NCBI GenBank assembly: GCA_023264445.1
Contig: JAHFMN010000002.1
Location: 66,365 to 130,364, forward strand
Origin: Candidatus Kaiserbacteria bacterium
Lineage (GTDB): Bacteria; Patescibacteriota; Minisyncoccia; Phycocordibacterales; Phycocordibacteraceae
DNA length: 64,000 bases
Direction of reading: 5' to 3'
Below the pieces are notes generated by a model. It was not told where the DNA came from, did not search any database, and worked only from the letters and a program-made list of their open reading frames with translations. Positions 2,525-56,560 of this stretch are shown piece after piece (positions within the stretch are counted from its first letter, which is position 1; each line of letters opens with the position of its first letter). The translations under genes were made by a program, and so were the position numbers.

Positions 2525-2527
2525 ACA

Positions 2528-7577: not shown

Positions 7578-7583
7578 ATTTAT

Positions 7584-8528: not shown

Positions 8529-8608
8529 CCCGTTAGAAATAGAACTTACAAGGTAATCTTTCAATGTTCGTTTATTATTCATGCTTTGCTCGTTATTTCT
8601 AACGGGAT
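8527..8608 (-). promoter_or_regulatory. 15-bp perfect inverted repeat (atcccgttagaaata / tatttctaacgggat) forming a large stem-loop in the leader of the pilin-like gene
   Basis: Arms at 8527-8541 and 8594-8608 read directly from the sequence. Confidence 0.45.
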
Positions 8609-9604: not shown

Positions 9605-9633
9605 GCTTCTAGTATATAGCCTGCGCAGCGCCC

Positions 9634-12115: not shown

Positions 12116-12116
12116 A

Positions 12117-12752: not shown

Positions 12753-12753
12753 A

Positions 12754-13191
12754 TTAGGATGTGGGCTTTTCACCCCCTCCAGATACATCAAGCGACCATG
12801 CGAGCTCGGAAAGCTTGCCGCGGGTGAGTTTCGGCGTTCTACGCGCACTCTGCGCAGCAGCATCTGCTTGTGCGGCCGCCTGTACTGCAGCACTCTCCCC
12901 TGCCGCCTTCGACTCTTCGCGTTTCCAGAGGAAGAACTTTGCACCGATGTAGTAATTGAAGCCCGCCTCCAACACCTCTATGAAAGGTTTCCCGTTTATC
13001 TTGTAAAACGAAAGGGCCGCTGCGAGTGCTGCGACTGGCACCGAAAGCATGATGGCATACAGTATTGGCAGATAGACGAAGAGGATGACGCAGAGTCCAA
13101 TGCCGCCGGCGACATAAATAAATTGCTTCAGCGTCAAAGGGCCGATAATCTTGTCTTCAACCTCGATAAATTGTGGCACCTGGTACTCCAT
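12754..13191 (-). CDS. PrgI-family (VirB3-like) small membrane protein
   Basis: MEYQVPQFIEVEDKIIGPLTLKQFIYVAGG followed by two TM helices, immediately upstream of VirB4; arrangement typical of Gram-positive-type T4SS. Confidence 0.55.
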   Translation of the reverse strand: MEYQVPQFIEVEDKIIGPLTLKQFIYVAGGIGLCVILFVYLPILYAIMLSVPVAALAAALSFYKINGKPFIEVLEAGFNYYIGAKFFLWKREESKAAGESAAVQAAAQADAAAQSARRTPKLTRGKLSELAWSLDVSGGGEKPTS

Positions 13192-13483: not shown

Positions 13484-14122
13484 TTATAACGGAGAATTCC
13501 CTACGAGAAGGTCGAATACCCAGACGACCAGTCTGAAGAACGGCCCAGCAAACAAGTACGAGAAGGCAAACAAGAAAAGGATAAGTGAAAGCATTCCCGC
13601 CCCGCGGATGCTCTGCTCGATACGCGCAAGACCGCTCGCAAGGTGCCAGGGGAGTATCGCGCGAAGCGTGGTGAAGCCATCCAAAGGTGGAAATGGTATC
13701 AGGTTGAAAAGGCCGAGGAAAAGATTGATAAAGGCGATGGTCGTAGCAAATGAGATTGCGGTCGCATCGAGCCCCACCGCTCCACCGTAGCGAACGATTA
13801 TCCCGAAAATAACGGCGAGCAGGAGATTTGTCGCGCTTCCGGCGATGGCGACTAGTGCCTCACCCCAGCGCTGATTGCGCAGATTGTAGGGGTTATAGGG
13901 CACCGGCTTCGCCCACCCGAAAAGGATGGGAGAATGAGTGAAGATGAGGAGCGCTGGGAGAATGATGGACCCCATCAAATCGATGTGTGAAAGAGGGTTT
14001 AATGTGAGACGCCCGGCGAGCCGTGCAGTCGGGTCTCCGAGCGAGTTGGCGGCATAGCCATGCGCTACTTCATGCGCAATGACAGAAAGGATGAGGACAA
14101 TGAGCGAGAGGATGATTTCCAT
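13484..14122 (-). CDS. site-2 protease family (M50) zinc metalloprotease
   Basis: HEVAHGYAA zinc motif within a TM helix, LNPLSHIDLMGSI, multi-TM; internal ATG start at 14122. Confidence 0.75.
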   Translation of the reverse strand: MEIILSLIVLILSVIAHEVAHGYAANSLGDPTARLAGRLTLNPLSHIDLMGSIILPALLIFTHSPILFGWAKPVPYNPYNLRNQRWGEALVAIAGSATNLLLAVIFGIIVRYGGAVGLDATAISFATTIAFINLFLGLFNLIPFPPLDGFTTLRAILPWHLASGLARIEQSIRGAGMLSLILFLFAFSYLFAGPFFRLVVWVFDLLVGNSPL

Positions 14123-14161
14123 GGTTGCCGGTTTCGTATCGTATGCTACCATGCGGCAGTT

Positions 14162-14404
14162 ATGGCACGCGCCTGCGACATCACCGGCAAGAGCACGCAA
14201 ATTGGCGGGCGGTACTCCAACCGCACCCGCGCGACGCAATTCAACCCGACCGGCAAGGTACGCCGCAAGGCCAATCTCCAGAAGCGCCGCATCTACGTAG
14301 CAGAGCTTGGGAAAACAGTCATCGTGGACGTCTCGGTCAAGGGTCTCAAGACCATCAAGAAGCACGGCGCCTACGCCACCCTCAAGAAAGCGGGAGTTCT
14401 CTAG
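14162..14404 (+). CDS. rpmB: 50S ribosomal protein L28
   Basis: MARACDITGKSTQIGGRYSNRTRATQFNPTGKVRRKANLQKRRIYV. Confidence 0.85.
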   Translation: MARACDITGKSTQIGGRYSNRTRATQFNPTGKVRRKANLQKRRIYVAELGKTVIVDVSVKGLKTIKKHGAYATLKKAGVL

Positions 14405-14770: not shown

Positions 14771-15376
14771 ATGACGTACACACCAAGAGTATTTAATTTA
14801 CCAGTGCTTGAGGGGATTTCAGAAAAGCAGATTAAAGTGCATCTCGCGCTCTACGAGGGCTATGTGAAGCATGTGAATCTCATCATGGGCATGTCCCAGA
14901 TGTACGGAAAGACCGATGATGAAGGCGGTAAGTATTCTCTCGCTGAATTCCGCCGCCGATTCGGTTTTGAGTTCGATGGGATGCGCATGCATGAATACTA
15001 TTTTGAGCAGTTTGAGGGCGAGAAAGGAGGAAGCCCCGATTCAGTGCTTGCGAAAGCGGCGGCCGAGAAATACGGAAGCGGCGAAGAATTTCTTGCACAC
15101 GTGAGGCAAGTGGCAGCGACTCGCGGCATCGGCTGGGTAGTGGTATATGCCGATCCCGTCGGAAAGACTATCCATACGGTATTCGTCGGCGACCACGAGT
15201 TTGGCCAGCTTTCCGGCCTCCCTGTCCTCCTCGCACTCGATCTCTGGGAGCATGCGTACATGGTGGACTATGTGCCAGCCGACAAGAAAAATTATATTGA
15301 TGCGTTCTTCGCCAATCTCAATTGGAGCGTCGTTGAGAAGCGTTTTGACGAGGCGATGAAAATAAGCGCCGCATAA
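14771..15376 (+). CDS. sodA: Fe/Mn superoxide dismutase
   Basis: C-terminal DLWEHAYMVDY and ANLNWSVVEKRF signatures; start at MTYTPRVF (14771) gives about 200 aa; the listed ORF extension is probably non-coding. Confidence 0.78.
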   Translation: MTYTPRVFNLPVLEGISEKQIKVHLALYEGYVKHVNLIMGMSQMYGKTDDEGGKYSLAEFRRRFGFEFDGMRMHEYYFEQFEGEKGGSPDSVLAKAAAEKYGSGEEFLAHVRQVAATRGIGWVVVYADPVGKTIHTVFVGDHEFGQLSGLPVLLALDLWEHAYMVDYVPADKKNYIDAFFANLNWSVVEKRFDEAMKISAA

Positions 15377-16788
15377 GCGGCGAGGACGAGCAGGAACGGA
15401 AAACGCTCGATAGTAAAGGCCGCAAACGGGAGCGCGGAGCTTTTCTCCGCGATAAAGATGAAGTATTTCATGAGTACGTACACGGGATAGCCCGCGATTT
15501 TTGCAATGAGCAGCACGAAAGGCCCGATGGTCATGCCGACGACGCCCGCGAGCGCGGCGAAAGCCATTGCAAATGGCACAAACGGATTCACAAGCAGATT
15601 CGCAGGCAGAGCGACGAGCGAGAAGAGACCGATGTCGTAAAGAAGAAGCGGTAATACCGAGATCTGCGCCGCGAGCGTCGTCGCGACAATGTTCCTCCAG
15701 AAGGAGTGCAAACGCATCAAGCGTGCTTCGATGAGAGGCGAAAGCCAGATAATTCCCGCAGTCGCGGCAACCGAGAGGCCGAATCCGGGGTCGAAGACGA
15801 GAAAGAGAGGATTCCAGATGAGCATCAAGAGGACCGCCACAAGAAGCGCGCGGCTCGCGGCGTACGAGCGACCTGTCGCGCGTGCATAGAGTGCGATGAT
15901 GGCCATGATGGCGGCGCGTATGGCCGTGGCAGAGATACCTGCAATGCCGACAAAGAGGAGGAGTGCCGCGCCGCCGGCGAAAAACTGCAGGCGGCGCGGG
16001 AGCTGTAGGAGTACGAAAAAAGCCATCACCCACTCGGCCACGACCATGATGTTGTATCCGGAGAGGACGATGATTTGCACGAGCCCCGAGCGCGTGAAGG
16101 CATCCTTCAGTGCAGTCCCTAGCCCCTCCTTCCCGCCGATGACGATGCCGCCCGCAAGCGCCGAAGCGGGCTCCGGCAAGGCAAGAGCAAGTCCATCGAG
16201 GAATGAATGCTTAATGCGCGCGAGCGCGGCAGGAATCGAGTACCAAGGCGCGGGCTCTACCGTATATATGGACCCGAATTGGATAAGGAAGCGGATATTC
16301 CGCGCCTCTAGGTATTTATCGTAGCGGAAGGTACGTCCGCCATCCGTTTCAAACGCCTGCGGCAGAGAAAGCGTCCCGTATACGCGCACGCGGTCGCCGA
16401 CGCGCACATCGGCAGAAAGCGGCATGACCGCAAGTGCGCCGACCTTCTCACTACCCTTCTCCACAACGAGCGCGATGCGCTGATTCTTCTCGCGCACATC
16501 TGGATCGCTCACGACCACTCCGTCATACTGCACACGATGCCGCAGGTCGCTCGCAAATGCTTGAGGCAACGGTGTGTCAGCAATCGTCGCACGCACCGTT
16601 CCGAACACGACGCAGATACAAAACACCGCACCAAGTGAGTACACAAGGCGCGGCTTCAAAAACGCCGCGCCGCCAAACAGCGCCGCGAGTAGCATTACAA
16701 ACAAAACTGCCTCCCATCCAAAATTAAAAACCGACTGCACCCCCACCCCACCCACAAACCCTGCAACAATGGCGATAAGAGCCTCCAT
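15292..16788 (-). CDS. comEC: ComEC/Rec2-family DNA internalisation channel (no metallo-beta-lactamase domain)
   Basis: N-terminal DUF4131-like region plus competence domain, GLVQIIVLSGYNIMVV, multiple TM. Confidence 0.78.
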   Translation of the reverse strand: MEALIAIVAGFVGGVGVQSVFNFGWEAVLFVMLLAALFGGAAFLKPRLVYSLGAVFCICVVFGTVRATIADTPLPQAFASDLRHRVQYDGVVVSDPDVREKNQRIALVVEKGSEKVGALAVMPLSADVRVGDRVRVYGTLSLPQAFETDGGRTFRYDKYLEARNIRFLIQFGSIYTVEPAPWYSIPAALARIKHSFLDGLALALPEPASALAGGIVIGGKEGLGTALKDAFTRSGLVQIIVLSGYNIMVVAEWVMAFFVLLQLPRRLQFFAGGAALLLFVGIAGISATAIRAAIMAIIALYARATGRSYAASRALLVAVLLMLIWNPLFLVFDPGFGLSVAATAGIIWLSPLIEARLMRLHSFWRNIVATTLAAQISVLPLLLYDIGLFSLVALPANLLVNPFVPFAMAFAALAGVVGMTIGPFVLLIAKIAGYPVYVLMKYFIFIAEKSSALPFAAFTIERFPFLLVLAAYAALIFIASSKRFSTTLQLRLAKNASI

Positions 16789-19145: not shown

Positions 19146-20867
19146 TTAAACCATTCGGATATCGATGAGTCGCAGGCGGACAGGATTGCCGCGCGAGAAG
19201 GTGTCGCGCTCAAGATGCGCGAGCATATGCACCCTACTTCCCGATGAAAGCGTTTCTGCAGTGCGTGCGATGGCGCCTTTTGCAAAAAAGGTCACGGCGT
19301 CAATGTGCACATTTCCTTCATGTGCAGCTATTTTTAATTTCAAATGTTCCTCGCCTTTTCCAAAACGTGAAATCTCATGCGCGATGACCTCGCGTAAAAG
19401 AAACACCGGCTTCGGATTCTCCATACCGAACGGCGCGAGCCGCTCTATTTTTTTCAGGAACGATTCATTTATTTCTTCCGGTGCAATGGTGCCGTCGGCA
19501 TGCTTGGAAAGATCATCTTCGGCTTCTTGCGTCTCCAAACGTGCGTGCGCCTCGACGAGTCGGTCTTCCAGAAAAAATACTTCCGTATCTTGCACGGTGA
19601 AACCGCCCGCTTTTGCATGGCCGCCGAATTCTACAAACATGTTTTCCGTGCCGCGCATGAGCTCGAGGATATGCGTATCGCCGCCACTTCGCACTGAACC
19701 TTTGAGACTCATGTTCCCCTCCCTTCCCCAGAGGAATACTGGCCGCTCATATTCGTCTGCGATGGTATTGCACACGAGCCCGAGGAGTGCCGGGCGCCAT
19801 TCCGGATCGCCGAGCGCGATGACGCTACGCACCTCGCGCTCTTTGAGCCGCGTGTGCACCGCGCGCGTGATGGCGCCCGCTTCTGCCTTGCGCTGGCGGT
19901 TCGCCTTCTCGAGCTTTTTTGCGAGCGCGTCTGCTTCGCTCTCATCCTCCGTGGTGAAGAGGCGGAACGCATCGCGTGCATCGCCCATGCGGCTCGCCGC
20001 ATTCACACGCGGCGCTATCATGAAGCCGACATCGTCTTCGGTAATCGTGCGCTGGTTTACGCGCATGCCGCGACAGAGCTTCTGGAGGCCGATTCGCGGC
20101 GATTTGCGCATGACGAGGAGGCCATAGGTAGCGAGCAGCCGGTTCTCGTCTATAAGCGGGACCATGTCGGCGATGGTTGCGAGCCCCACCATGTCCAGGA
20201 GCCACTTCTCCCACCCCTCCGGCACCTTCTCGCGGAGCTTCGGTTCCACAGCGAGCGTCGCGCAGATGAGCTTCCACGCCACCGCCGAACCGCAGAGTCC
20301 GTGAAAGGGATATGCTTCATCCTCTCTCGCATTCGGGTTTACGACGGCGAATGCTTCGGGAAGCGTCTCGCCCGGGAGGTGATGGTCCGTGATGATGACA
20401 TCAATCCCAAGCTCCTTTGCGCGAGCAACCGGCTTGGTATCAGTGATGCCGGAATCAGCGGTGATGATGAGCGTGACGCCATCTTTTGCGAGCTTCTCAA
20501 TACCGCTTACATTCATGCCATACCCTTCTTCATGTCGATGCGGAATGTAATTTTGAAAGTTCGCTCCCGCTTTCTTGAGAAAATCGTGCAGAAGAGATCC
20601 GCCCGGAATGCCATCGCAGTCATAGTCGCTCCAGACAGCAATATGCTCTCGCGAGAGAATGGCGCTCGCGAAACGCTTCGCGGCCTTCTCCATATCAGTC
20701 ATGAGGAGCGGATCGTACAGGTGTAGATCGTATGAGGGATTCAGGAATTTTTCCGCCGCTTCTTTGGTCATGATGCCGCGGCGCGCAAGTAATGCAGCAG
20801 TTAGGTCATCGTACGAAGCAAGTTCGGTACGGAGCACCTCATCAAGCGGGTCATGGAGCGGAAACAT
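19146..20867 (-). CDS. recJ: single-stranded-DNA-specific exonuclease RecJ
   Basis: DHH motifs DYDCDG, DVIITDHH, DHHI-like; DHHA1 region. Confidence 0.9.
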   Translation of the reverse strand: MFPLHDPLDEVLRTELASYDDLTAALLARRGIMTKEAAEKFLNPSYDLHLYDPLLMTDMEKAAKRFASAILSREHIAVWSDYDCDGIPGGSLLHDFLKKAGANFQNYIPHRHEEGYGMNVSGIEKLAKDGVTLIITADSGITDTKPVARAKELGIDVIITDHHLPGETLPEAFAVVNPNAREDEAYPFHGLCGSAVAWKLICATLAVEPKLREKVPEGWEKWLLDMVGLATIADMVPLIDENRLLATYGLLVMRKSPRIGLQKLCRGMRVNQRTITEDDVGFMIAPRVNAASRMGDARDAFRLFTTEDESEADALAKKLEKANRQRKAEAGAITRAVHTRLKEREVRSVIALGDPEWRPALLGLVCNTIADEYERPVFLWGREGNMSLKGSVRSGGDTHILELMRGTENMFVEFGGHAKAGGFTVQDTEVFFLEDRLVEAHARLETQEAEDDLSKHADGTIAPEEINESFLKKIERLAPFGMENPKPVFLLREVIAHEISRFGKGEEHLKLKIAAHEGNVHIDAVTFFAKGAIARTAETLSSGSRVHMLAHLERDTFSRGNPVRLRLIDIRMV

Positions 20868-26732: not shown

Positions 26733-28481
26733 CTATTCGCTTATGGCGCGCAAGACCTCTTCAATGCTCGTGATGCCGCGTGCGGCCTTGTAGAGCCCGT
26801 CTTCAAGCATCGTGAGCATACCCTCTTTCTTCGCCTGCGTCTCAATGGCATCGCTAGTGCTTGAGCGGAGAATAATCTCGCGGATTGTCGGGGTAACCGC
26901 AAGCACTTCATGGATGCCGATACGGCTCTTGTATCCGTCTTCGCATTCGGGAGTCGGCGTCGGTCGATAGAAGGAGAGGTCATCGAGCGTGGACCCTTTC
27001 TTGACGAGCTTTTCATCTTCAAGGGCTTTGAACGCCGCTTTGAATTCCGTATCAGCGGCGATTTTCGCCCGCATCGCGGTACTCATGGAGTAAGACTCTT
27101 TACTCTCACAAAGCTTGCGAACGAGCCGTTGCCCGATGATGACACGGACGGTAGAAGCGAGAAGGAAGGGTTCCACGCCCATATCAAGGAGGCGCGGGAT
27201 GGAGCCGGCAGCGCTGTTGGTGTGAATAGTCGAGAGCACGAGATGGCCAGTGAGTGCAGCGTTGATGGCAAGCGAAGCCGTCTCGCTGTCGCGGATTTCG
27301 CCGACCATGATGATGTCAGGGTCCTGGCGCACGAGCGAGCGGAGTCCATTTGCAAAGGTGAATCCGATGGTTGGATTTACCTGTGTCTGGTTGACCCGCT
27401 TCATCTGGTACTCGATAGGGTCTTCGATCGTGGAGATGTTTACGTCCGGCTGGTTGAGGATATCCATCATCGTATACAGCGTTGTCGTCTTGCCGCTTCC
27501 AGTTGGGCCCGAGATGAGGATGATGCCGCTCGTCTGCTTGAGCGCACGATGAATGCGCTCCGTATTTTCCCCGTGGAGACCGAGTACGTCGAGCGTGAAG
27601 CCCTCCCCCGTTTCGCGCAGAAGGCGCATCACCGTCTTCTCACCGAAGAAGGTTGGGAGGATTGAGACGCGGAAGGACACGCGATCTGCTTCGGTCTCCA
27701 TCTTGAAGCGGCCGTCCTGCGGGAGGCGCTTTTCATCGAGTTTTAGATTGGAGAGCACTTTGATGCGCGCGACGACGCTCGGAGCCGCAGCCTTCGGTAG
27801 CGTCATCGCGTCGTGGAGGATGCCGTCAATGCGATAGCGCACTAGCACCTCGCTTTCCATCGGTTCGATATGGATGTCGGAAGCGCCTTGCACGATGGCA
27901 TGCCGCAGAAGCGTATCCACGATGCGCACGATGGGCAGGTCCTCCGCCATCTTCTTGAGGTCATCGCTTGAGAGGTCCTTGTTTCCCTCTGCGATGACCC
28001 TGATTTTCCCCGCCTCGGTAGAAATGATGTCGCCAAACTCGTCCTTGAGCGATTTCTGGTACTGCAGGAGGGAGAATTTGATGCTCTCGGTATCGGTGAG
28101 CCGCGAAAGGATCTTCAAGCCGGTCTTCTTGCGCACTGAATCGATCGAGGAGAGGTCTTCCACGTCGAGCATCGCCACTTCAAGCGATTCTCCTTCTTTC
28201 TTGTACGCGATGATATTGTGCGTGCGCGCAATCGGCTCGGGGATGAGCGCGAGCACCTCAACCGGAATCCGGTGGTCTTTTAGGTTTACGAACGGAATAC
28301 CGAGCACATACGCCTGGATGCGCCGGAGTGCGTCATCGGTCAAGGAGCCGCACGAGACGAGGATATCGCCGAGCGATTGGCCGCGTTTCTTCGCCTCTTC
28401 ATCGGCAGCATCAATTTCTTTCTTGGCGACGAGGCCAGAATCAATAATGAACTCTTTCAGTTCGCCTTCTGAAACGTGCAT
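26733..28481 (-). CDS. pilB: type IV pilus assembly ATPase PilB/GspE family
   Basis: Walker A GPTGSGKTT, Asp box, GEIRDSETASLAINAALTGHLVLSTIHTN His box; start taken at MHVSEGELKEF (28481). Confidence 0.88.
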   Translation of the reverse strand: MHVSEGELKEFIIDSGLVAKKEIDAADEEAKKRGQSLGDILVSCGSLTDDALRRIQAYVLGIPFVNLKDHRIPVEVLALIPEPIARTHNIIAYKKEGESLEVAMLDVEDLSSIDSVRKKTGLKILSRLTDTESIKFSLLQYQKSLKDEFGDIISTEAGKIRVIAEGNKDLSSDDLKKMAEDLPIVRIVDTLLRHAIVQGASDIHIEPMESEVLVRYRIDGILHDAMTLPKAAAPSVVARIKVLSNLKLDEKRLPQDGRFKMETEADRVSFRVSILPTFFGEKTVMRLLRETGEGFTLDVLGLHGENTERIHRALKQTSGIILISGPTGSGKTTTLYTMMDILNQPDVNISTIEDPIEYQMKRVNQTQVNPTIGFTFANGLRSLVRQDPDIIMVGEIRDSETASLAINAALTGHLVLSTIHTNSAAGSIPRLLDMGVEPFLLASTVRVIIGQRLVRKLCESKESYSMSTAMRAKIAADTEFKAAFKALEDEKLVKKGSTLDDLSFYRPTPTPECEDGYKSRIGIHEVLAVTPTIREIILRSSTSDAIETQAKKEGMLTMLEDGLYKAARGITSIEEVLRAISE

Positions 28482-28673
28482 ATACCTTTGAAGTATAACG
28501 CGCCCATACTCAACTCTAGCGTGCTGTGCATATATACTGTTGCTATTGACGCAGTTTCGCTCTTTAACAATTCGGAAGATGTAAGACATCCTAGGTAACG
28601 TTCGACGTTACAGCAGGATTAGGATGTCGCGTACGGGGGCGAATCGTAAACGATTCGCCCCCAACTCTTTCTA

Positions 28674-35218: not shown

Positions 35219-35292
35219 TGGTGCGGGATAGGAGAATCGAACTCCTGCTCTCAGTTTGGAAAACTGACGTTCTACCATTAAACTAATCCCGC
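35219..35292 (-). tRNA. tRNA-Gly (anticodon TCC), CCA encoded
   Basis: Hand-folded cloverleaf: acceptor GCGGGAT/ATCCCGC, anticodon loop TTTCCAA, T-loop TTCGATT. Confidence 0.8.
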
Positions 35293-35350
35293 CCTTCTTC
35301 GCTAAAGCTACAAAGGGCACAGTGCGAGAATACCATTTTTAGGTTAGCGT

Positions 35351-36469
35351 ATGAATATGCCTCGCCTCCTCCCTTATCTCGGTGCCGTTGTGGCGGCATT
35401 CTTTTTCATTCTTTTTGTGAATACGTTTGCGCATGTGCCGGCCATTTTTGTTAAAGCTCCTATCGTGCCGGATACAAATCTGGCTGCACAAACGAGCACG
35501 GAACTTTCTTCGGAGCCAGATGCAACCACTTCCCCCGCTACTGCGGCGGCTCCCGCGACTCCGCAAACACAGAAAGCACCGGCATTAAACGCATCGGCCA
35601 TCCAACCGGTGCAGTTCCCCTCGCTACCTCCTGTTCCGACAAGCGCGGAGCTCGATGCAGCCGCTTCCGTACTACGCAATGCGCTCGTTAATATTCTCTG
35701 CTATGCACCTTTTGGCAGCGGCTTGCACTCGATTTCTGGCAGCGGCGTCTTCATCAGTTCAAAAGGCATTATTCTCACCAACGCGCACATCGGGCAGTAT
35801 TTCCTCTTTTCTGATCTCGGCGTTTCCTGCACTATCCGCACGGGAAGCCCGGCCACAGATCGTTATGAAGCCGACCTTATGTTTATTTCGCCCGCGTGGG
35901 TCAACACAAATCCGGATGTGCTTACCAAGGCCTCGCCAATCGGGACTGGCGAGCATGACTTCGCACTCCTCGCTGTGACAAAGAGCGCAACGAGGGCGGC
36001 GCTTCCCGCATCCTTCCCCTTCATATCACTTGCAGCGAGCCCCCCTTTCCCTGGTACCCCCATTATCATAGCTTCGTACGGTGCACAGTTTCTTGTATCA
36101 AGTCAGGTAGAATCTTCCCTCTTCCCCACCATCGTGTTCGGCTCGGTGAAAGATGTGTTTACCTTTGCTCTCAATACCATTGACGTGCTTGCGCTTGGCG
36201 GTTCCGCCGCCGCGCAAGAAGGATCTTCAGGAGGAGGTGTCGCAGATGCCTCTGGGGAACTGGTAGGGACCATTACGACGAGTACTGTTGAGGGTTCAAC
36301 CGACACTCGCTCACTCGATGCTATTACGGCTTCCTATATCCGTTCCGACTATGCAAGCGAGACCGGGCGTCCACTCGATCTCCTCCTCGCCGGGTCGACC
36401 ACCACTGCCATAGCCGATTTTGCTCCGCAGATACCGGTACTTGAAGCGATCTTAACCGCTCATCTGTAA
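35351..36469 (+). CDS. secreted trypsin-like (S1/HtrA-type) serine protease without a PDZ domain
   Basis: ILTNAHIG (His), DFALLAV (Asp), GSSGGGV (Ser) catalytic-triad contexts; N-terminal signal anchor. Confidence 0.7.
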   Translation: MNMPRLLPYLGAVVAAFFFILFVNTFAHVPAIFVKAPIVPDTNLAAQTSTELSSEPDATTSPATAAAPATPQTQKAPALNASAIQPVQFPSLPPVPTSAELDAAASVLRNALVNILCYAPFGSGLHSISGSGVFISSKGIILTNAHIGQYFLFSDLGVSCTIRTGSPATDRYEADLMFISPAWVNTNPDVLTKASPIGTGEHDFALLAVTKSATRAALPASFPFISLAASPPFPGTPIIIASYGAQFLVSSQVESSLFPTIVFGSVKDVFTFALNTIDVLALGGSAAAQEGSSGGGVADASGELVGTITTSTVEGSTDTRSLDAITASYIRSDYASETGRPLDLLLAGSTTTAIADFAPQIPVLEAILTAHL

Positions 36470-36487
36470 CTTTAGTCGGGTTTTTTG

Positions 36488-36558
36488 TCGGGGCGCCGGG
36501 AATCGAACCCGGTCTATCTGCTCCCAAAGCAGGCGTACTACCGGTATACTACGCCCCG
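36488..36558 (-). tRNA. tRNA-Pro (anticodon TGG), CCA not encoded
   Basis: Hand fold: C1-G72 pair and A73 typical of tRNA-Pro, U8, A14, G18G19, anticodon loop TTTGGGA, T-arm CCGGG-TTCGATT-CCCGG. Confidence 0.75.
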
Positions 36559-36659
36559 ATATGGAGGAAGGGTGGCGCAAGTCCTCTTGCGAGCACTCTC
36601 TCCGTAATATCGAGGCGAAAGCTTTGCTTACGCCCCGATGTTCAAGCACTCTAGCAGTT

Positions 36660-37055
36660 TTATACGATTTGCGGCAGGTAGCGGACACGTGCCATGCCGT
36701 CTCCGCGGCGCAACCATACGAGACAACCGTCTACCTGCCACTCTCCTTCCCAGTTCTTCTCAAGGACATACCACTCCCCGGTCCGTGCGACCTTCCGTAT
36801 TTTCATTTCATGCAGATTGAGTGACGGATCATAGTTATCGCGGGCATCTTTTTCAACAGGAAATTCGTCAACAAGAATCGTCTTCACTTCAATAACGTGC
36901 AGCGTATCTTCGCTTCTTGCGACGATGTCCAACTCGCCGGTTTTACGCATCACATTCCGGTCGATAACCGAAAACCTATGCCTTTTGAGGTACTCGGCAG
37001 CCACGTTTTCCCCTAGAGCACCAATTTCCTTCCTGGTCTTAGAGGAAAGGTCCAC
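36660..37055 (-). CDS. yraN: YraN-family (UPF0102) endonuclease
   Basis: GALGENVAAEYLKRHRFSVIDRN...GELDIVA...VIEVKT. Confidence 0.75.
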   Translation of the reverse strand: MDLSSKTRKEIGALGENVAAEYLKRHRFSVIDRNVMRKTGELDIVARSEDTLHVIEVKTILVDEFPVEKDARDNYDPSLNLHEMKIRKVARTGEWYVLEKNWEGEWQVDGCLVWLRRGDGMARVRYLPQIV

Positions 37056-37225
37056 GGCTTTTAGAAATATGGCTCATTTGCTCACTATTTCACAGACTTG
37101 TTGAAAAGTCCTATGTCCTTTATCCCCAATATCCCCTATGTTATCCACTTTTACCACATTACCAAAAGACAGGCAAAAACAGCCTAGTCCTCAATGAGGA
37201 CTCTCACGTCCCCACTCGTTCGCTG

Positions 37226-37296
37226 TGCGGGTAGGGAGAATCGAACTCCCATCATCTGATTGGCAACCAGATGTTCTACCATTGAACCATACCCGC
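37226..37296 (-). tRNA. tRNA-Gly (anticodon GCC), CCA not encoded
   Basis: Hand fold: acceptor GCGGGTA/TACCCGC, anticodon loop TTGCCAA. Confidence 0.8.
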
Positions 37297-37345
37297 GCTA
37301 GGCGGCATGATACCACATCGCCCGATTCAATTTCTAGTAGCTTTG

Positions 37346-37417
37346 TGCCCCGACCAGGACTCGAACCTGGAACGACAGTTCCGAAGACTGTTGTGATATC
37401 CATTTCACCATCGGGGC
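37346..37417 (-). tRNA. tRNA-Arg (anticodon TCG), CCA not encoded
   Basis: Hand fold: acceptor GCCCCGA/TCGGGGC, anticodon loop CTTCGGA, T-arm CCAGG-TTCGAGT-CCTGG. Confidence 0.75.
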
Positions 37418-43974: not shown

Positions 43975-45555
43975 ATGCGCCCTTCTTCGCCACAGGCATC
44001 GAAGGGCGCCGTACGTCGCGCTCCTGCAAAAAAAGTATCGCAAACAGGGTATGCGAAGACCTTTGCCGCACAGCCCGTCGGCTCAAGTGCAGAAGTGGTT
44101 TCAGTTGAAGCCGACCTCACACGCGGACTGCATGCGTTTTCCATCGTAGGTCTTGCGGACAAGGCGGTGGAGGAGGCGCGCGATCGTTTAAGCGCCGCAA
44201 TACGTCATTCCGGCTATAAGTCGCCCAAGCAGCAGAACAAGCGCATTGTCCTCTCGCTCTCGCCTGCAGATTTAAAAAAGGAAGGTTCGCATTATGACCT
44301 GGCGCTCGCGCTCGCGTACCTCATCGCCGCAGAGGACCTCGCACCGCTTGAAGAGGAAATGTTGTTTGCCGGCGAGCTTGCACTTGATGGGACGCTGCGC
44401 AGCGTGCGAGGCATTCTTCCGCAGGTGCTTGCCGCCAAGCGCCGCGGCGTGAAGACGATATTCGTCCCGCCAGGAAATGCACGCGAAGCGCTGCTTGCAG
44501 AGGGTGTGAGCGTATATGCGCCAGCAACGCTTGCGGAACTCTTGCAGCATTTGAAAAAAGAAAAGCCATTGCCGCGCCTTCTACGCGACAGGCGTTCGCC
44601 GGTTGTGCCGCTTTCGCTTGACCTGAAGGATGTGAAAGGGCAGGAGAGTGCAAAGCGCGCACTCGAAATAGCCGCTGCCGGGCGCCATAATATCGTTTTC
44701 TATGGCCCGCCGGGCACTGGTAAGACGATGCTCGCTCGCGCGCTCTCCGGAATCCTCCCGTCTCTCTCCGATGACGATATGCTCGAGGTAACCGCCATTC
44801 ACTCGACTGCGGGTCTTCTCGCAGAAGGCGAAGCAGTCCATTGGCCGCCGTTTCGTGCACCGCACCACTCCATATCGCACGTCGCCATCGTGGGCGGAGG
44901 CGCGTTCCCGAAAGCAGGTGAAGTGACCCTTGCGCACAAAGGTGTCTTGTTTCTGGACGAATTTCCAGAGTTTGATTCCCGTACACTTGAAGCGCTGCGA
45001 CAGCCGCTTGAGGATCGCGTCGTTACCGTCTCGCGTGCTCGGGCGAGTGTTACGTTCCCGGCCGACTGCATGATTGTCGCAGCGATGAACCCGGCGGATT
45101 CTCTTTCGGAAGACTCACGCGTGGCGATACGCGCTGCGGCGAAGCAGGCGCGGCGCATTTCGCGCCCCATCGTTGACCGTCTTGACCTCTGGATAGAAGT
45201 GCCGCTCGTTCCGCATGATACGCTCGCGAAATTAAGTACCGGCGAGCCGTCCGAAGAAGTACGCACACGCGTTATTGCCGCCCGGGCCCGCGCCGAAAAA
45301 CGCACCGGCAAACGTGGCGCGACAAATGCGGCTCTTACGGGTCGTGAACTTGATGAAAAAAGCGGCTTCAGTGCGGAGGCAAAAGAGACACTCATGCAAT
45401 CTGCCGCGCGTCTCCGTCTCTCGCCGCGCAGTTATCACCGCACGATGCGCGTAGCACGTACTATTGCTGACCTCGCTGGTGCTGATGTCGTCACGCCCGC
45501 CTTCGTGCACGAAGCGCTTCAATACCGCCCCCGGGGCCTCTTTGGATTTGAATAA
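43975..45555 (+). CDS. comM: YifB/ComM-family Mg-chelatase-like AAA ATPase (competence protein ComM)
   Basis: Lon-like N-terminal domain, Walker [22 protein letters not shown]-terminal helical domain. Confidence 0.88.
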
Positions 45556-49784: not shown

Positions 49785-50552
49785 TTATTCCCACTCGGTT
49801 TTCGCGGCCGCTAGCAGCTTTTTGAATCGAGGATTCTCCATCATGATGGAGAAGAGTTGTTGTGCAAGCAGGACACCGGCACGTGTATCACTGGGGTAGT
49901 GGAGGCCAGCAATCTCGCGGTTCCTCGCTACCTGATCGGCGCGTGCGATGAATTCGTCCTTGCGCGCCGGTGCGAGCTCGCCGAGCACATACGCAAGAAA
50001 ATGCATCTGGGTGGAGTGGCCGCTCGGGTATGCAGGGTGCCCGGGTACCACGATTGCTGTAGTCAGGTCGGGGTCAAGCGCACTCGGTCGGACTCGGTCA
50101 AACTTCTTTTTTTGCTGGAGCGTAAGCACCGTCACATCATGGAAACTGTCTTCAAGCAGGAGCGCGGTGGCAGGGAATTTCTTCTTATCCGCGTAGTCAG
50201 TGACCATATGTCCCCCAAACTCGAGAGTCGATAATTCACGTTCGGCGAGAATATCTTTTATTTCCTGCGGCGTGCGCAGGTCGCGGTATGACATAAGCGT
50301 CGAGAGTTCCGCTCTGACCTCGCTTGAGGAGTTTTTTGGCGGCGGCGGGAGTGAAATATTCGCAAAGAGCTCCGCCGGATAGCACGTCGGCTCCTCCGAG
50401 AGCTCAAGCAATTGCGGTTCCCACGCCCCGGTGTTGGAGAAGGCGAGGACATCCTTCCGCGCTGCTTCCGCGGGGGCGAAAATGAAGAAATATCCGCCAA
50501 AAAGGAGTACAAGGCCGATAATGCCGAAGGTAGGAAGATACTTTTCAATCAT
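49785..50552 (-). CDS. PAP2-family phosphatase, membrane-anchored
   Basis: KX6RP (KKKFDRVRP), PSGH, SRX5HX3D (NREIAGLHYPSD) motifs; N-terminal TM. Confidence 0.7.
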   Translation of the reverse strand: MIEKYLPTFGIIGLVLLFGGYFFIFAPAEAARKDVLAFSNTGAWEPQLLELSEEPTCYPAELFANISLPPPPKNSSSEVRAELSTLMSYRDLRTPQEIKDILAERELSTLEFGGHMVTDYADKKKFPATALLLEDSFHDVTVLTLQQKKKFDRVRPSALDPDLTTAIVVPGHPAYPSGHSTQMHFLAYVLGELAPARKDEFIARADQVARNREIAGLHYPSDTRAGVLLAQQLFSIMMENPRFKKLLAAAKTEWE

Positions 50553-50635: not shown

Positions 50636-51703
50636 ATGCGACTGCTATACTTCTGTATGAATACCATGGGGCAGATTCTACGACATTGGCGGGTGCTCAC
50701 GGCAGCAGCGTTCTCCGTTGTCATCATTGTCGGCGCCTATGTGCTTGTGCGTGGTGTAGGGTCTCCGCCACTTGCAGAAGCTTCAGCCGAGACGGCGCTC
50801 CTGCAGGCCATTGCGACAAAAGATTCGGATGGGGATGGACTTCCCGACTGGGAGGAAGCACTCTACGGCGCCGATCCTCGCATTACCGATACATTCCATC
50901 TGGGAATGACCGACGGCGAGGCAGTTTCTCGCGGTCTCGTTGTTCCGAAAGCAATCGCTGACATTAACATTGGGGATGCTTCACCCAGCGCATCTGCGAG
51001 TGTGGACGGCTCATTGCCACCGCCTCCTGCAGAGGGAAGCCTGACGGCTGCCTTTGCAGAACATTTCTTTGCGCTCTACCTCACGGCGAAAGAAAAGAAT
51101 GGCGGTGCGGACCTCTCTCAGGCCGATATGCAGACCATTGCGGATGAAACGGTGCGTGCACTTTCGGACACTCTTGCCGCCGCTCCTGATTTCAAGTCTG
51201 CAAAAGATCTCACAGTGTCGGGTTCAGGCACTGACGCGCTCCAGACATTTGCCATACAGGCGGAAGCAGTGCTTCTGAAGAATACGAGCACTGCGTCGGC
51301 GAGTGAGATTGCATATCTCACAGACGTAGTGCAGAACAATCATGAAGAATCCCTCACACCAATCATTTCAATAGCAAAGGCATATCGCGATTCTGCTGTC
51401 GGGCTCTCCGTGCTTCCCGCACCGCGTGAACTCGCTTCCGCTCACCTAGCACTTGTGAATGCACTCATGCGGGTGAGCGAGATATGCTCCGATTTTGCCC
51501 GAGTGAATACCGACCCCCTCGCGACCATGCTCGCGCTTGAGCAGTATCCGCAAGCAGTCCTTGCACTCGGTACGGCATTCATAGACATCGGCAAGGTATA
51601 TAAAACGGCGAATATCTCGCTTCCTGCCGACGCATCGGGAGCTGCCTTCGTGAACCTCATGACTGATATCGCAAACGAGCAGGCTGCCGCCAAGAAACCA
51701 TGA
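50636..51703 (+). CDS. hypothetical signal-anchored protein with a DSDGDGLPDWEE (DxDxDG calcium-binding-like) motif
   Basis: ORF; first gene of a 4-gene co-directional block. Confidence 0.5.
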   Translation: MRLLYFCMNTMGQILRHWRVLTAAAFSVVIIVGAYVLVRGVGSPPLAEASAETALLQAIATKDSDGDGLPDWEEALYGADPRITDTFHLGMTDGEAVSRGLVVPKAIADINIGDASPSASASVDGSLPPPPAEGSLTAAFAEHFFALYLTAKEKNGGADLSQADMQTIADETVRALSDTLAAAPDFKSAKDLTVSGSGTDALQTFAIQAEAVLLKNTSTASASEIAYLTDVVQNNHEESLTPIISIAKAYRDSAVGLSVLPAPRELASAHLALVNALMRVSEICSDFARVNTDPLATMLALEQYPQAVLALGTAFIDIGKVYKTANISLPADASGAAFVNLMTDIANEQAAAKKP

Positions 51704-53484
51704 GCACGCGCCCTTTCTCCTCCGTTATCGCGCTCTGTTTGATTGCTGTGCTCCTTGTTCCGTCCGCGTTTCTCGCCGTACCGCGGCAAGCTCACGCTAT
51801 TTTCGGAGGTGGCGGCCCTGGTCTTCCCTCTGTTTTCCCAACAGTGGAAATCCCGGGAGCCAATTATTTTGCAAACATAAAGACATCGGTTGAAAGTACT
51901 ATCAGCGCCATCAAGAACACTATTACGAGCGTAGCAAGTGTCACGAGTGCGGCCGCGAATGTTGCGATGCAGATAAACGCCTATGTGCTTCAGCCGCTCG
52001 CCTTTATCCTCTCGGGAAATCTGATGAAGGTGCTCACCGCCGGCGTCATCGCCTTCGTTATTGGTAAAGCAAATGGCACTGGCATCCCGCAGTTCGTGGT
52101 GGACGTGCAGAAATCACTCCAGACGGTCAGCGATGGGAAGGCGCTCGCTTTCTTCAGTCAATTCGGGCGCAATTCAAACTCACCCTTTGCCGGTTCCATC
52201 ACCTCGGCATTGCGCAATGATTATCTTTCTAAAACATCACTTGCCGGCTTCTGGGCCGCCAATATGAACACGCTTGCTGCCTCCTCGCCGACCTATAGGA
52301 GTGATTTTCTCACCGGGAACTGGTCGCACGGCGGTGTGGCAGCATGGTTCGCACTTACGACGCAGTCACAAAACAATCCATATACGTTCTATCCGGCGGC
52401 AAAAACCCAGCTCGCAAGTCTTATCGGCCCCGGTGCTGGCGGTGCAACTGGCGCACGCGTTGCGGAGCTGAGTTGGGGGCAAGGCTTTATGTCGTGGTGC
52501 GGCGCAAGCGATGCTGCCTCTGGAGCAACCGCAACCGATATTGCTCAGCTCGGAGGGGCGACCGGCGTCAATCCCGGAGATGCGTGCACCAATGAAGACG
52601 GCACGGTGGGTGCTATCAAAACACCGGGCTCGGTCATCTCTGCCACGCTCAATAAGGTGCTCGGTGGTCAGCAGGACATCATCACGCGCATGGGCAACGT
52701 CGGCCCCGAGATAAACGGCATCTTGCAAAATATCGGCACGGTTATGCAGACGGTAAATTTTGCGACGGAACTTCTCGGCGGCCCTGGCTCCGGCGGTCTC
52801 TTCGGCGTCGACCAACCTTCAGGAACCAATTCAACCTCTCGACTTCTGCAGTATCAGAGTTCTCCGGGCTATCTCGGCGTTACGAACTCAACGGTTCTCC
52901 AAAATAGTTCATCACTACCGGCATCGGGCGCTGAAATGACGGCTCGTATTACGCAATACCAATCGGCATGGAACGCTATCAACGTTTCAGCGACAGCGGC
53001 GTCAACGACGGTAGCGAGCCTCATCACCTTCTGTGCGAATGCCGCTCAAGTCGCCCAAGACTCGACATTTACGAATACGACCAACACGCAGATAACCGCT
53101 GCACGAGCCGCTCTTACAAACGAGATACAGCCAGTTCTTGTGCAGGTCGCCGCTGCACAAACTACCATTGCGACGGCACAGGCGATGGTGCAGAAAATCC
53201 AGAGCGAACTGAATGCATCTTCCGACGCAGAAGTGGCGACCTATGCAGCGGACATACAGGCACTACAGACCATGTCGCCGACTGCCTCTGACGTCGCGAA
53301 TGTGCAGCAGGAGGCGCAAGCGCTTGGTGGCGTCACAGCCGTTCCAGAGGGCTCGCTTACAGTCACTGGTGGCTCGCTCGTGGATCAAATGGCGCTTATA
53401 AGTACGAATGCGAATGCGCTGAAAGCGTCAGCCTGTACCTTTGTCCCGCCCACCGTCTTTTCAGGTGGTAATGACGGCTTTTAA
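51700..53484 (+). CDS. hypothetical large secreted Thr/Ala/Ser-rich protein with a signal peptide plus a second hydrophobic helix
   Basis: ORF; 4-nt overlap with the upstream gene. Confidence 0.5.
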   Translation: MSTRPFSSVIALCLIAVLLVPSAFLAVPRQAHAIFGGGGPGLPSVFPTVEIPGANYFANIKTSVESTISAIKNTITSVASVTSAAANVAMQINAYVLQPLAFILSGNLMKVLTAGVIAFVIGKANGTGIPQFVVDVQKSLQTVSDGKALAFFSQFGRNSNSPFAGSITSALRNDYLSKTSLAGFWAANMNTLAASSPTYRSDFLTGNWSHGGVAAWFALTTQSQNNPYTFYPAAKTQLASLIGPGAGGATGARVAELSWGQGFMSWCGASDAASGATATDIAQLGGATGVNPGDACTNEDGTVGAIKTPGSVISATLNKVLGGQQDIITRMGNVGPEINGILQNIGTVMQTVNFATELLGGPGSGGLFGVDQPSGTNSTSRLLQYQSSPGYLGVTNSTVLQNSSSLPASGAEMTARITQYQSAWNAINVSATAASTTVASLITFCANAAQVAQDSTFTNTTNTQITAARAALTNEIQPVLVQVAAAQTTIATAQAMVQKIQSELNASSDAEVATYAADIQALQTMSPTASDVANVQQEAQALGGVTAVPEGSLTVTGGSLVDQMALISTNANALKASACTFVPPTVFSGGNDGF

Positions 53485-53486
53485 GT

Positions 53487-55547
53487 ATGAACCGTTCATT
53501 TTTTAAAATCCCGCTCATCGTCATCGTGTTTCTCGCATGCACGATGGGTGCCACACCCAGCGTGCATGCCCAGAACACCACAACCTTCACCTCGCAAACT
53601 GCTCTTGATGCATATAACGCCTGTATAGAAAATCAGGGGACGGAAGAACAATGTAATGCAGCATACGAGATATATCTTGGGTCAGTGGGCACGACAATTC
53701 AAAATGATCCTGCAGCTGAAAAAACTCCACTCGATCTAAAATTGGGAGGAGATACGGGCGAAAAATTCGGCGAAATCGCTTCCTGGATTATGTCGCTCTT
53801 TGCATGGCTCGTTGGAGTCGCGATGCTCACTCTTGACTATGCGGCGTACTATACGGTCGTTACGATGGGGACGTATGTGAATGATCTCTCCGCAATCGGC
53901 GTCACGTGGCAAATTCTGCGAGATCTCGGCAACATCATTCTTATATTTGGGTTCCTTGCTATCGGTATTACCACCATTCTAAACGTGGACTGGTACGGCG
54001 GTGGAACCAAATTGCTCCCGAAGTTGCTCATTGCCGCTGTATTTCTAAATTTTTCCCTCTTTATAACCGAGGCGATCATTGATACCGGCAATTTATTTGC
54101 CACCCAGTTCTATAAGCAGATTAATGGCGGCAATCTCCCGACCCCGACCGGGACCGGAATAACCGGTTTAGCTGTGAATGGTGTCAACCTAACTACGGGG
54201 AATGAGGGTATTTCAACCAAGATCATGTCTCAACTAGGACTTCAGACTCTCTACGCAAACGGACAAGTCAATCAAAAACTTTTCAAGGGCGGAAATCTAT
54301 TTCTTATCGGCTTCTTGGGCATCATCCTTTTCATCGTTGCGGCGTTTGTGATGTTCTCGCTCGCTTTCATACTCATCGCGCGTTTCGTCATACTCCTCTT
54401 TCTTATCATCCTCGCCCCCATCGGCTTCGCTGGACTTGCGATACCTCAGCTCGCAGGCAGAGCAAAACAATGGTGGGACACACTCTTTGAGCAGACGCTC
54501 ACCGCGCCAATCCTGTTCCTCACTCTCTACATTGCGCTCGCCATCATCACCGACGCCTCGTTTCTAACTGGCTTCGGTATAAACGCTACCGCGACTGGCG
54601 CTACAGGGACCACGGGATTCTGGACTGGAGCCATAGAGAACGGCAATCTGGTCGGCTTCGCAGGGATACTCATCACGTTTCTTGTTGCGATGGGACTCTT
54701 GCTTGCCGTCACCATTTTCGCCAAAAAACTTTCCGCCTTCGGCGCAGGCTGGGCGATGAAAACCGCTGGTGCTCTTTCCTTTGGCGCAACCGCGTGGGCT
54801 GGGCGCAATACTGGTGGATGGCTGGCTAATAAAACTGCTCGCGGTCTTCGCAAAACCTGGGTAGCTCGCGTTCCTTTAGCTGGAACAGGTCTCGTGAAAG
54901 GATTGGACCGTGTTGCTGGTGCAAGCTTTGATGTACGTGGTGCCACGATGGGAGGTGGTTTGAAAGCGACTGGTATTGACGCTGGCACTGCTCAGAAGGG
55001 CGGCTACAAAGCCGAACTCAAGGGCCGTATTGAATCGAGAACGAAATACGCGGCTGAACTTAAGGGTCGCGAACTCACGGACGAGGAAAAGATTGATCAG
55101 AAAGTTGAACAAAATAAGATCAAGGCAACAGAAAAAAGGTTGGCGGATCTGCAAGTTCATCAGAGAGCGTTGGCCGCGGCCGGAAAAGATACGAAAGTTG
55201 CAGATGAAGAAATTGCCACTGAGAAAGAGCTACTTACAAGGTTCAAAGAGAAACTTGACGAGATAGAAAGTGTCACAGACAAGGGAGCTCAGCGTAAATA
55301 TGCAAATGCTCTCAATCTCTGGACTGACCCTAAGAATAGATTCAATAGAATATTCAACTTCGCTGCTAATACCGAAGCAGCGGAAAAGATACGAGGTGAA
55401 GCAAAAAAATCCTCCGATGATAAGACATTGGATAGTCTTAAAAAAGCGCTCAAGAAAGCTTCTGGTGAAGAGGAAACGCCAGCTACGACCCCGCCTCCAA
55501 CGGCCGCCCCTTCTGCCGGCGGTGCATCAGGTGCTGCAAAATCTTAA
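53487..55547 (+). CDS. polytopic membrane protein (signal peptide, about 8 TM, coiled-coil charged C-terminus, Pro-rich tail); VirB6/TrbL-like topology
   Basis: TM count and architecture only; no family motif confirmed. Confidence 0.45.
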   Translation: MNRSFFKIPLIVIVFLACTMGATPSVHAQNTTTFTSQTALDAYNACIENQGTEEQCNAAYEIYLGSVGTTIQNDPAAEKTPLDLKLGGDTGEKFGEIASWIMSLFAWLVGVAMLTLDYAAYYTVVTMGTYVNDLSAIGVTWQILRDLGNIILIFGFLAIGITTILNVDWYGGGTKLLPKLLIAAVFLNFSLFITEAIIDTGNLFATQFYKQINGGNLPTPTGTGITGLAVNGVNLTTGNEGISTKIMSQLGLQTLYANGQVNQKLFKGGNLFLIGFLGIILFIVAAFVMFSLAFILIARFVILLFLIILAPIGFAGLAIPQLAGRAKQWWDTLFEQTLTAPILFLTLYIALAIITDASFLTGFGINATATGATGTTGFWTGAIENGNLVGFAGILITFLVAMGLLLAVTIFAKKLSAFGAGWAMKTAGALSFGATAWAGRNTGGWLANKTARGLRKTWVARVPLAGTGLVKGLDRVAGASFDVRGATMGGGLKATGIDAGTAQKGGYKAELKGRIESRTKYAAELKGRELTDEEKIDQKVEQNKIKATEKRLADLQVHQRALAAAGKDTKVADEEIATEKELLTRFKEKLDEIESVTDKGAQRKYANALNLWTDPKNRFNRIFNFAANTEAAEKIRGEAKKSSDDKTLDSLKKALKKASGEEETPATTPPPTAAPSAGGASGAAKS

Positions 55548-55560
55548 TGTCTAGCTAGGT

Positions 55561-56490
55561 ATGGAACCATCAAACCAAAATATAAGTCTGGAAGAAAGTA
55601 TGAAGCAGGTTATGCAAACAGTACCGCCCGTTATACGTAATTATCTTGTTCAAGAGAAATATACACCGATTACAAAAGCTCTGATGACCAAGTATGCACT
55701 CCGGATTGATCAAGGTGGCATTCTGGAAAGAGAAATCATGCTGCTTTTGTTAGGAATCGAGAGTCCGGACGAATTTTCTCAAGCACTTGTCGGAGAGGCG
55801 AAGTTGAGTCAACAGGTGACGAGCGGGATTTTACAGGATGTAAACACACAGATTTTTGTGCCCCTGCGCGCACGGATGCAAAGTGGGGAAGGGAAGGTGG
55901 AACAACCAGTAAAGCCCGCAGCGCCGTGGACGCCACCACCGCGCCCGCCCGTCGTTCCGCGCGCGGCGTGGACCCGCCCGGCCCCAAGGCCGGTTGCGGC
56001 AGCGGCGCTCAGCACTCCCGTACCTCCTCTTCTGCAGCAGCCGCAGCGGCCAGCTCCTCTGCATCCGGTTGTAAAGGCAGAGCTGCCAAGCACGCCTCCT
56101 CCGCCAGTCCCGCCGCGTCCTCGCGGCCCGAGCCTTGCCCCGCTGCCGCCGAAGACTGTACTGCCGCGCGGTGGAATGACCCCTTCGGCTCAAACGGATA
56201 GCAGCCGACTGCTCGAAGACCATGAGGAGCCGCACATCGATATTAAAACAGCCATGCCGAAACCGCCTCCGCCACGTATTGCCCCTCCATCTCGTCCGAA
56301 CGGACCGCCGCCGAATTTGCCCGGTGCCATGCCGCCGCGCGGTATCGTTTCTCAAGTTATGCCGCCAGCCCCTCCGGCTGGAAGGATTGACCACCCTCCG
56401 CTTCCTGTACCACCTCCGCCTCGCCCGCCGGCTCCGCGTCCTCCTGTCCAACCCTATTCCTCTGACCCTTATCGTGAGCCGATAGAGTAG
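55561..56490 (+). CDS. hypothetical Pro-rich protein (PPxPP repeats)
   Basis: ORF. Confidence 0.45.
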   Translation: MEPSNQNISLEESMKQVMQTVPPVIRNYLVQEKYTPITKALMTKYALRIDQGGILEREIMLLLLGIESPDEFSQALVGEAKLSQQVTSGILQDVNTQIFVPLRARMQSGEGKVEQPVKPAAPWTPPPRPPVVPRAAWTRPAPRPVAAAALSTPVPPLLQQPQRPAPLHPVVKAELPSTPPPPVPPRPRGPSLAPLPPKTVLPRGGMTPSAQTDSSRLLEDHEEPHIDIKTAMPKPPPPRIAPPSRPNGPPPNLPGAMPPRGIVSQVMPPAPPAGRIDHPPLPVPPPPRPPAPRPPVQPYSSDPYREPIE

Positions 56491-56527: not shown

Positions 56528-56560
56528 GTCTCTGACCCTCCTCGGGTCTTCTTTTTCTAA

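Follow-up and report, generated by a model that had tools for sequence, protein, structure and literature searches.

A gene block beside the str operon of a Candidatus Kaiserbacteria genome is very probably the VirB6 half of a split chromosomal type IV secretion cluster

Introduction

Type IV secretion systems (T4SS) of Patescibacteria have been described by Wang et al. (2023, PMC10633639) and Quinonero-Coronel et al. (2025, PMC12102498), and the machine presented in these two papers is the same as the one encoded in the DNA analysed here, a stretch of 64,000 nt from a Candidatus Kaiserbacteria bacterium (assembly GCA_023264445.1, contig JAHFMN010000002.1, forward-strand positions 66,365 to 130,364), hereafter called the window. 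Common to both are a VirB4 related to mating pair formation (MPF) class FATA, TrsD, PrgI/VirB3, VirB6 and a VirB2-type pilin, a location near dnaA and ksgA, and the lack of a relaxase. The subject of this work is a block of four genes of the window, designated A, B, C and D, which lies directly upstream of the str operon. A preliminary description, made from the sequence alone, had proposed that the block supplies the VirB6-like and surface components of the secretion locus at 6387-13191, or else forms an independent surface structure.

In Table S3 of PMC12102498, the Paceibacteria genome RAAC4_OD1_1 carries VirB6 (gene 531), PrgI (533), TrsD (534), VirB4 (535) and VirB2 (537), with gene 532, at the position of D, unlisted. 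This order, VirB6-x-PrgI-TrsD-VirB4, matches that of the contiguous relatives described below, and KsgA and DnaA are, according to the same paper, frequent in the neighbourhood of virB4. In the window, by contrast, the cluster is in two pieces, of which the VirB6 half adjoins the str operon. PMC12102498 catalogues only homologues of known MPF proteins, and the families of A, B and D are not described in its accessible text. The published view is that the T4SS of Patescibacteria is not conjugative; in Saccharibacteria, which include the one Patescibacterium tested genetically, it is essential for epibiotic growth, and its function is called 'completely unknown' (PMC10633639 and PMC11665869).

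Outside Patescibacteria, the best structural match of protein C is TrwI/VirB6 of R388 and Agrobacterium VirB6 (MPF-T), which have a polytopic helical core like that of C, and in R388 the trwI gene adjoins that of VirB5 and is close to those of VirB3 and VirB4, a comparable context. However, identity is only about 12-17%, and C is twice as long and carries an extracytoplasmic domain at its N-terminus as well as a charged domain of about 260 aa at its C-terminus. In contrast to MPF-T hosts, the host of the window is monoderm and has no VirB7, VirB9 or VirB10. For monoderm T4SS, the VirB6-like gene (PrgH/TraL type, as in pCF10 and pIP501) lies in pCF10 just upstream of PrgI (VirB3) and PrgJ (VirB4). 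Gram-positive conjugative systems have no VirB2 pilins, and they carry a relaxase and a coupling protein.

Results

Block A-D runs on into PrgI-TrsD-VirB4 in related genomes

Genes A-D are, with high confidence, the promoter-proximal half of a chromosomal, MPF-FATA-related T4SS cluster of Paceibacteria-type Patescibacteria. All four are intact open reading frames (ORFs) on the forward strand. Gene A (50636-51703, 355 aa), the first of the cluster, overlaps gene B (51700-53484, 594 aa) by the 4 nt ATGA, gene C (53487-55547, 686 aa) starts 2 nt past B, and gene D (55561-56490, 309 aa) starts 13 nt past C. The start of rpsL (56561) lies 70 nt beyond D and is followed by rpsG, fusA and tuf, so the ORF coordinates bear out the description of four tightly packed, co-directional genes directly upstream of rpsL. 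A terminator-like hairpin with a T-run (56534-56558, forward strand) stands between D and rpsL and may be where the A-D transcription unit ends; this is weak evidence, as a promoter and terminator scan of the region gave site counts not above chance.

The four proteins had been called orphans, which is not the case: each has hundreds of homologues, all of them unannotated proteins of Patescibacteria. Relatives of the contig are labelled Paceibacteria, Kaiserbacteria or Minisyncoccota. Scans of A, B, C and D against Pfam and NCBIfam returned no enzymatic family and no family assignment, the sole match being a sub-threshold TSP3 repeat in A, in agreement with the earlier statement that no enzymatic motif is recognisable.

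Gene order was compared in two samples. The first comprised 82 related loci fetched through C and annotated by tblastn of the window proteins; the second comprised 80 distant metagenome loci, found by alignment of A relatives about 25% identical to A of the window and annotated by hidden Markov model (HMM) searches and phmmer. As far as the contigs reach, the order ksgA-A-B-C-D is invariant in the 82 loci, uvrD-ksgA-A-B-C-D recurs in the distant 80, and A-B-C-D is thus found in all 162. Gene A always lies directly upstream of B, the 4-nt overlap of A and B is kept in most related loci, and a gap of 6-12 nt between C and D is preserved across them. In 68 of the 82 loci of the first sample rpsL comes after D, as it does in the window. 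Three of its loci (L055, L069 and L081) show another continuation, with D followed on the same strand by PrgI, the gene at the TrsD position, VirB4, a 331-aa secreted protein, the pilin, a 396-aa protein, and then yidC and dnaA. In the distant clade, PrgI-TrsD-VirB4 stand directly past D in 22 of 23 informative loci, often together with the secreted protein and the pilin, and rpsL follows D in none of the 23. The exception, L147 (14556-19648), has after D a 404-aa protein and several small proteins whose N-termini are pseudopilin-like (GFTLMELL...), an alternative rearrangement that has brought the VirB6 half together with genes resembling those of type IV pili.

A-D are therefore contiguous and co-directional with PrgI-TrsD-VirB4 in a total of 25 loci, and in many of these D and prgI overlap or are separated by a few bases. 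This is the co-occurrence of the block with the VirB4 locus that the preliminary description had proposed to look for, and the existence of one contiguous cluster in relatives supports its suggestion that the 6387-13191 system obtains its VirB6 and surface components from the block. Since the distant clade is contiguous in 22 of 23 loci and never has rpsL after D, a contiguous cluster of about 11 genes is general and the str-side position is derived. The polarity was taken from the distant clade; a neighbour-joining tree of C has unresolved deep branches, places contiguous loci in two positions and alone gives no polarity. Because D stays between VirB6 and PrgI in the contiguous clusters, it is a gene of the T4SS cluster rather than of the str operon. 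In the window the two halves lie about 37 kb apart on opposite strands, both intact, and the breakpoint falls precisely at the junction of D and prgI. The split would be explained by one inversion of about 43 kb whose ends lie at D|prgI and at the junction of the M50 peptidase gene (13484-14365) and rpsL. The str-adjacent position is a lineage-specific rearrangement without functional meaning.

An independent envelope or surface structure, merely sharing the origin-proximal region with the T4SS, would fit the 37 kb and the change of strand that separate the block from the VirB4 locus, the terminator-like hairpin behind it, and the lack of similarity of A, B and D to T4SS proteins. The contiguity and shared direction with PrgI-TrsD-VirB4 in 25 loci largely refute this account, leaving the independent structure of the preliminary description unsupported, and C is homologous to VirB6. 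We regard it as very unlikely.

Protein C is related to VirB6 through its wider family

By hydropathy, C has a signal-like N-terminus and about seven further transmembrane (TM) segments at residues 96-418, followed by a charged helical C-terminal region and a Pro/Thr tail, much as first described. The N-terminal domain is small and extracytoplasmic, and the C-terminal hydrophilic domain measures about 260 aa. This architecture fits the 'extended VirB6' of PMC12857230.

An AlphaFold model of C was built from 44 homologues, with a mean predicted local distance difference test (pLDDT) score of 68.5 and values of about 70-80 in the TM core. The top seven Foldseek matches of the model were all TrwI chains, at probabilities of 0.60-1.00 and at least 0.92 for the top five. 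C is accordingly polytopic, with at least five TM helices and a predicted VirB6 fold, as in the VirB6 family. The HMM search with the TrbL/VirB6 model PF04610 gave a mixed outcome, with no match in the window protein, while in two sets of its relatives TrbL models came close to the cut-off without reaching it, in 12 of 44 and 7 of 28 C-family members. The best scores of relatives were 25.7 bits for TrbL (cut-off 25.9) and 26.1 bits for TrbL_4 (cut-off 27), and no family other than TrbL recurred in the Pfam scans of C relatives.

Profiles were then compared with hhalign. The distant-clade profile consisted of the C orthologues that adjoin PrgI-VirB4 in the distant clade, and the VirB6 profile of seven real proteins, namely TrwI, Agrobacterium VirB6, and IncN, IncU and Xanthomonas relatives, with NC_028464 as the R388 reference. 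The window-clade C profile matched the distant-clade profile at 100% (E 8.7e-79), which places both unambiguously in one family, and the distant-clade profile matched the seven-member VirB6 profile at 93.7% (E 1.9e-7) over 208 columns. Reversed and column-shuffled controls reached at most 0.5%, so hydrophobic composition is not the explanation of the match. Against a single TrwI sequence, the window-clade profile gave no significant hhalign result, and a search of the C-family profile against all PDB sequences did not retrieve VirB6. On this profile evidence, C is a VirB6 homologue through a transitive link via the wider family, and the earlier reading of C as VirB6/TrbL-like is upheld by the TrwI matches, the recurrent near-threshold TrbL scores and the profile-profile homology with its clean controls.

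Alternatively, C could belong to a known family of solute transporters or permeases, with the block serving as a nutrient-uptake module, since C is polytopic with about seven TM helices and Patescibacteria rely on nutrient import. Yet no such family was found in Pfam or NCBIfam for C or 72 relatives, and ABC and MFS chains appeared only at Foldseek probabilities of at most 0.11, the best matches being VirB6. We consider this the least credible of the rival accounts, with a next to negligible chance of being right.

A, B and D are conserved cluster families

Protein A is bitopic, with a single N-terminal hydrophobic anchor at about residues 18-44 by hydropathy. It contains one TSP3 calcium-binding repeat at residues 63-81, with the motif DSDGDGLPDWEE. 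The repeat is sub-threshold in A of the window (17.8 bits, cut-off 25), and TSP3_bac was matched in 31 of 45 A-family members in one set and in 46 of 47 diverse members, with a best E of 9.8e-11. The Asp, Trp and Glu positions of the motif are invariant in the family. By these family-wide matches the motif is a real bacterial TSP3 repeat, and the first impression of a signal-anchored protein with a calcium-binding-like motif was thus sound. The remaining extracytoplasmic domain of about 270 aa gave no PDB-profile match and no other Pfam match. VirB8/PrgL was considered as a candidate for A; the bitopic topology fits, but hhalign against TrwG and Ti VirB8 scored 0.1%. Two tandem copies of A precede B in six loci of distant relatives (L091, L095, L106, L108, L109 and L150), which suggests duplication and diversification of a surface-exposed component.

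Protein B has a signal-like segment at residues 1-31 ending in AHA and a second hydrophobic segment at 100-122, both by hydropathy, and is rich in Ala (14.8%), Thr (10.1%), Ser (9.9%) and Gly (9.8%), which confirms its description as an exported, Thr/Ala-rich protein of 594 aa with a second hydrophobic helix. It also contains a conserved, Cys-containing middle region and a C-terminal bundle of long helices at about 410-580. No sequence or fold similarity to the VirB5/TrbJ helical bundle was detected, and the B-family profile retrieved nothing meaningful from all PDB sequences.

Protein D, noted before as Pro-rich, contains 23.6% Pro and no TM segment, and is predicted to be cytoplasmic. Alignment shows a conserved helical N-domain at about 1-105 followed by a Pro-rich linker, with the conserved motifs LLEDHEEPHI and NLPG and the C-terminal peptide PYSxDPYREPI. 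D had no Pfam or PDB match; the locus tags of its homologues are adjacent to those of C. Public gene calls start D at Met18 (292 aa), which leaves out the region 55561-55614. As a TLEESI motif upstream of Met18 is conserved in D orthologues, the 309-aa form is probably correct.

As judged from these sequence searches, A, B and D are conserved cluster families without a match to VirB5, VirB8 or, apart from the TSP3 repeat of A, a known domain.

The ATPase and pilin half

The other half of the cluster (6387-13191, reverse strand) holds PrgI, a VirB4-type ATPase and a VirB2-type pilin, each above its Pfam cut-off, in one chromosomal locus with dnaA, dnaN and yidC adjacent, and it contains no large polytopic protein. 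Its first gene (12754-13191) encodes a PrgI/VirB3-like small membrane protein (PF12666, 41.3 bits, cut-off 27), and in L055, L069 and L081 the PrgI homologue is flanked by D and the 275-aa gene. The gene that follows prgI encodes a TrsD-like protein (12117-12752), a label given from its position between PrgI and VirB4 only, as in Table S3 of PMC12102498. The listed 275-aa ORF from GTG 12944 overlaps prgI, and the true start is likely ATG 12752, 1 nt past the prgI stop. The VirB4-type ATPase (10298-12217) matches P-loop_TraG (PF19044, E 7.1e-26) and AAA_10; its ORF begins at an upstream GTG overlapping the preceding gene (12085-12217), and Met45 of the listed ORF is the likely true start.

Downstream of VirB4, a 227-aa membrane protein (9634-10317) with about four TM helices and a Gln-rich coiled-coil tail has no Pfam match, and its position is kept in L055. 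A 331-aa secreted protein with a signal-like N-terminus (8609-9604) is kept after VirB4 in 12 related loci. Next comes a 342-aa protein with a VirB2-type pilin domain (7584-8612; T4SS_pilin PF18895, E 4.6e-8), which scored 27.6 bits for TrbC (PF04956), just below the 27.9-bit cut-off. Its pilin domain (residues 72-134) is fused to a Cys/Ser/Thr-rich C-terminal extension of about 200 aa. Pilins usually measure 70-100 aa, and a fused C-terminal extension is unusual. By hydropathy, the last cluster gene (6387-7577), adjoining yidC and dnaA, encodes a 396-aa membrane-anchored extracytoplasmic protein that keeps this last position in L055, L081, L127 and L132.

The VirB6, VirB3, VirB4 and pilin of this cluster are conjugation-type parts, and the VirB4 clade of Patescibacteria is derived from MPF-FATA conjugation systems according to PMC12102498, so the block might belong to a mobile conjugative element, either an integrative and conjugative element or a plasmid remnant, instead of a chromosomal housekeeping system. 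However, all 162 loci have the same chromosomal location, between uvrD-ksgA and rpsL or dnaA, and the GC content is like that of the flanks. Neither a relaxase nor a coupling protein gave a Pfam match in a scan covering the genes of the cluster plus 10 further large ORFs of the window, nor was an integrase found among the ORFs scanned. A tblastn search with the C core against 72,556 plasmids gave no match, which also counts against a mobile element. This origin is extremely unlikely.

Surroundings in the window

The start of the window is near the replication origin, with dnaN, dnaA and yidC. Most of the window has a GC content of about 0.50-0.59, but at 2001-4000, around dnaN and the end of the PBP1 gene, it falls to 0.378; this stretch could be foreign DNA or the AT-rich region of the origin. 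The intervening DNA of roughly 37 kb that separates the T4SS halves contains comEC (15295-16788, reverse), recJ (19149-20867, reverse), the gene of a PilB-type type IV pilus ATPase (26736-28589, reverse; T2SSE, E 1e-126) and a comM-like Mg-chelatase gene (43975-45552, forward); competence, type IV pilus and T4SS genes are thus all clustered near the origin. Four tRNA genes (Gly-TCC, Pro-TGG, Gly-GCC and Arg-TCG) lie at 35219-37417 on the reverse strand. A membrane-anchored PAP2-superfamily phosphatase is encoded at 49785-50552 on the reverse strand, directly upstream of the presumed promoter region of the cluster, and in close relatives its gene is kept between ksgA and A on the opposite strand (324-333 aa in L001 and L002).

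Discussion

The general form of the cluster comprises about 11 co-directional genes between uvrD-ksgA and yidC-dnaA, in the order A-B-C-D-PrgI(VirB3)-TrsD-VirB4-(4-TM protein)-(secreted protein)-VirB2-type pilin-(anchored protein). If the R388 structure and the Gram-positive systems are a guide, C would form an oligomeric platform or channel in the membrane, in the middle of the VirB3/VirB4 complex, and its long, charged C-terminal domain would be cytoplasmic and close to the ATPase. A, which is anchored and calcium-binding, and B may be lineage-specific extracytoplasmic parts that span the wall or support a VirB2-like pilus, B being a putative Sec-exported, probably disulfide-bonded helical bundle. 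D could act as a cytoplasmic adaptor, working through its Pro-rich linker and conserved C-terminal peptide. As suggested by the essential T4SS of Saccharibacteria, the system probably serves host-cell interaction and not conjugation.

Several points weigh against the assignment of A-D to this T4SS. For C, the E-values of the TrwI matches in Foldseek are weak (0.025-1.2), the structure model is only moderately confident (mean pLDDT 68.5), the protein of the window itself has no TrbL match in Pfam, and the window-clade C profile against the seven-member VirB6 profile is not significant (2.4%, E 0.019); homology is therefore established via the wider family rather than for the protein on its own. 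No similarity to any T4SS component could be detected for A, B or D, which are assigned to the machine from conserved gene order alone, not from homology. Each half of the cluster forms a transcription unit of its own in this genome, and the inversion that would have parted them is deduced from gene orientations only. The co-occurrence of A-D with VirB4 was judged from the fetched loci.

The T4SS of Patescibacteria, its origin-proximal position and its VirB6 homologues are already published (PMC10633639, PMC12102498 and PMC12857230). Compared with the accessible parts of these papers, the split in this clade, the generality of the contiguous form and the three conserved, undescribed cluster genes appear to be new. 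Surveys confined to 20 genes around virB4 would score split genomes as having no nearby VirB6, and they also miss three conserved cluster genes without known T4SS homology.

The overall published picture of the Patescibacteria T4SS is unchanged by the finding. With A-B-C-D in the machine, the parts list for Paceibacteria becomes fuller, at about 11 genes, and A, B and D are concrete candidates for its extracellular and cytoplasmic interfaces. A bolder proposal, which we hold to be possible but doubtful, is that A, B and D are lineage-specific core T4SS parts replacing missing modules. B would then be an exported, disulfide-bonded stalk or tip on the VirB6 platform, a functional analogue of VirB5 without detectable homology, A a calcium-dependent wall or surface anchor, and D a cytoplasmic adaptor docking substrates or the ATPase through its conserved C-terminal peptide, in place of a coupling protein. 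If true, this would define how the essential, non-conjugative T4SS of an epibiotic bacterium contacts the host cell.

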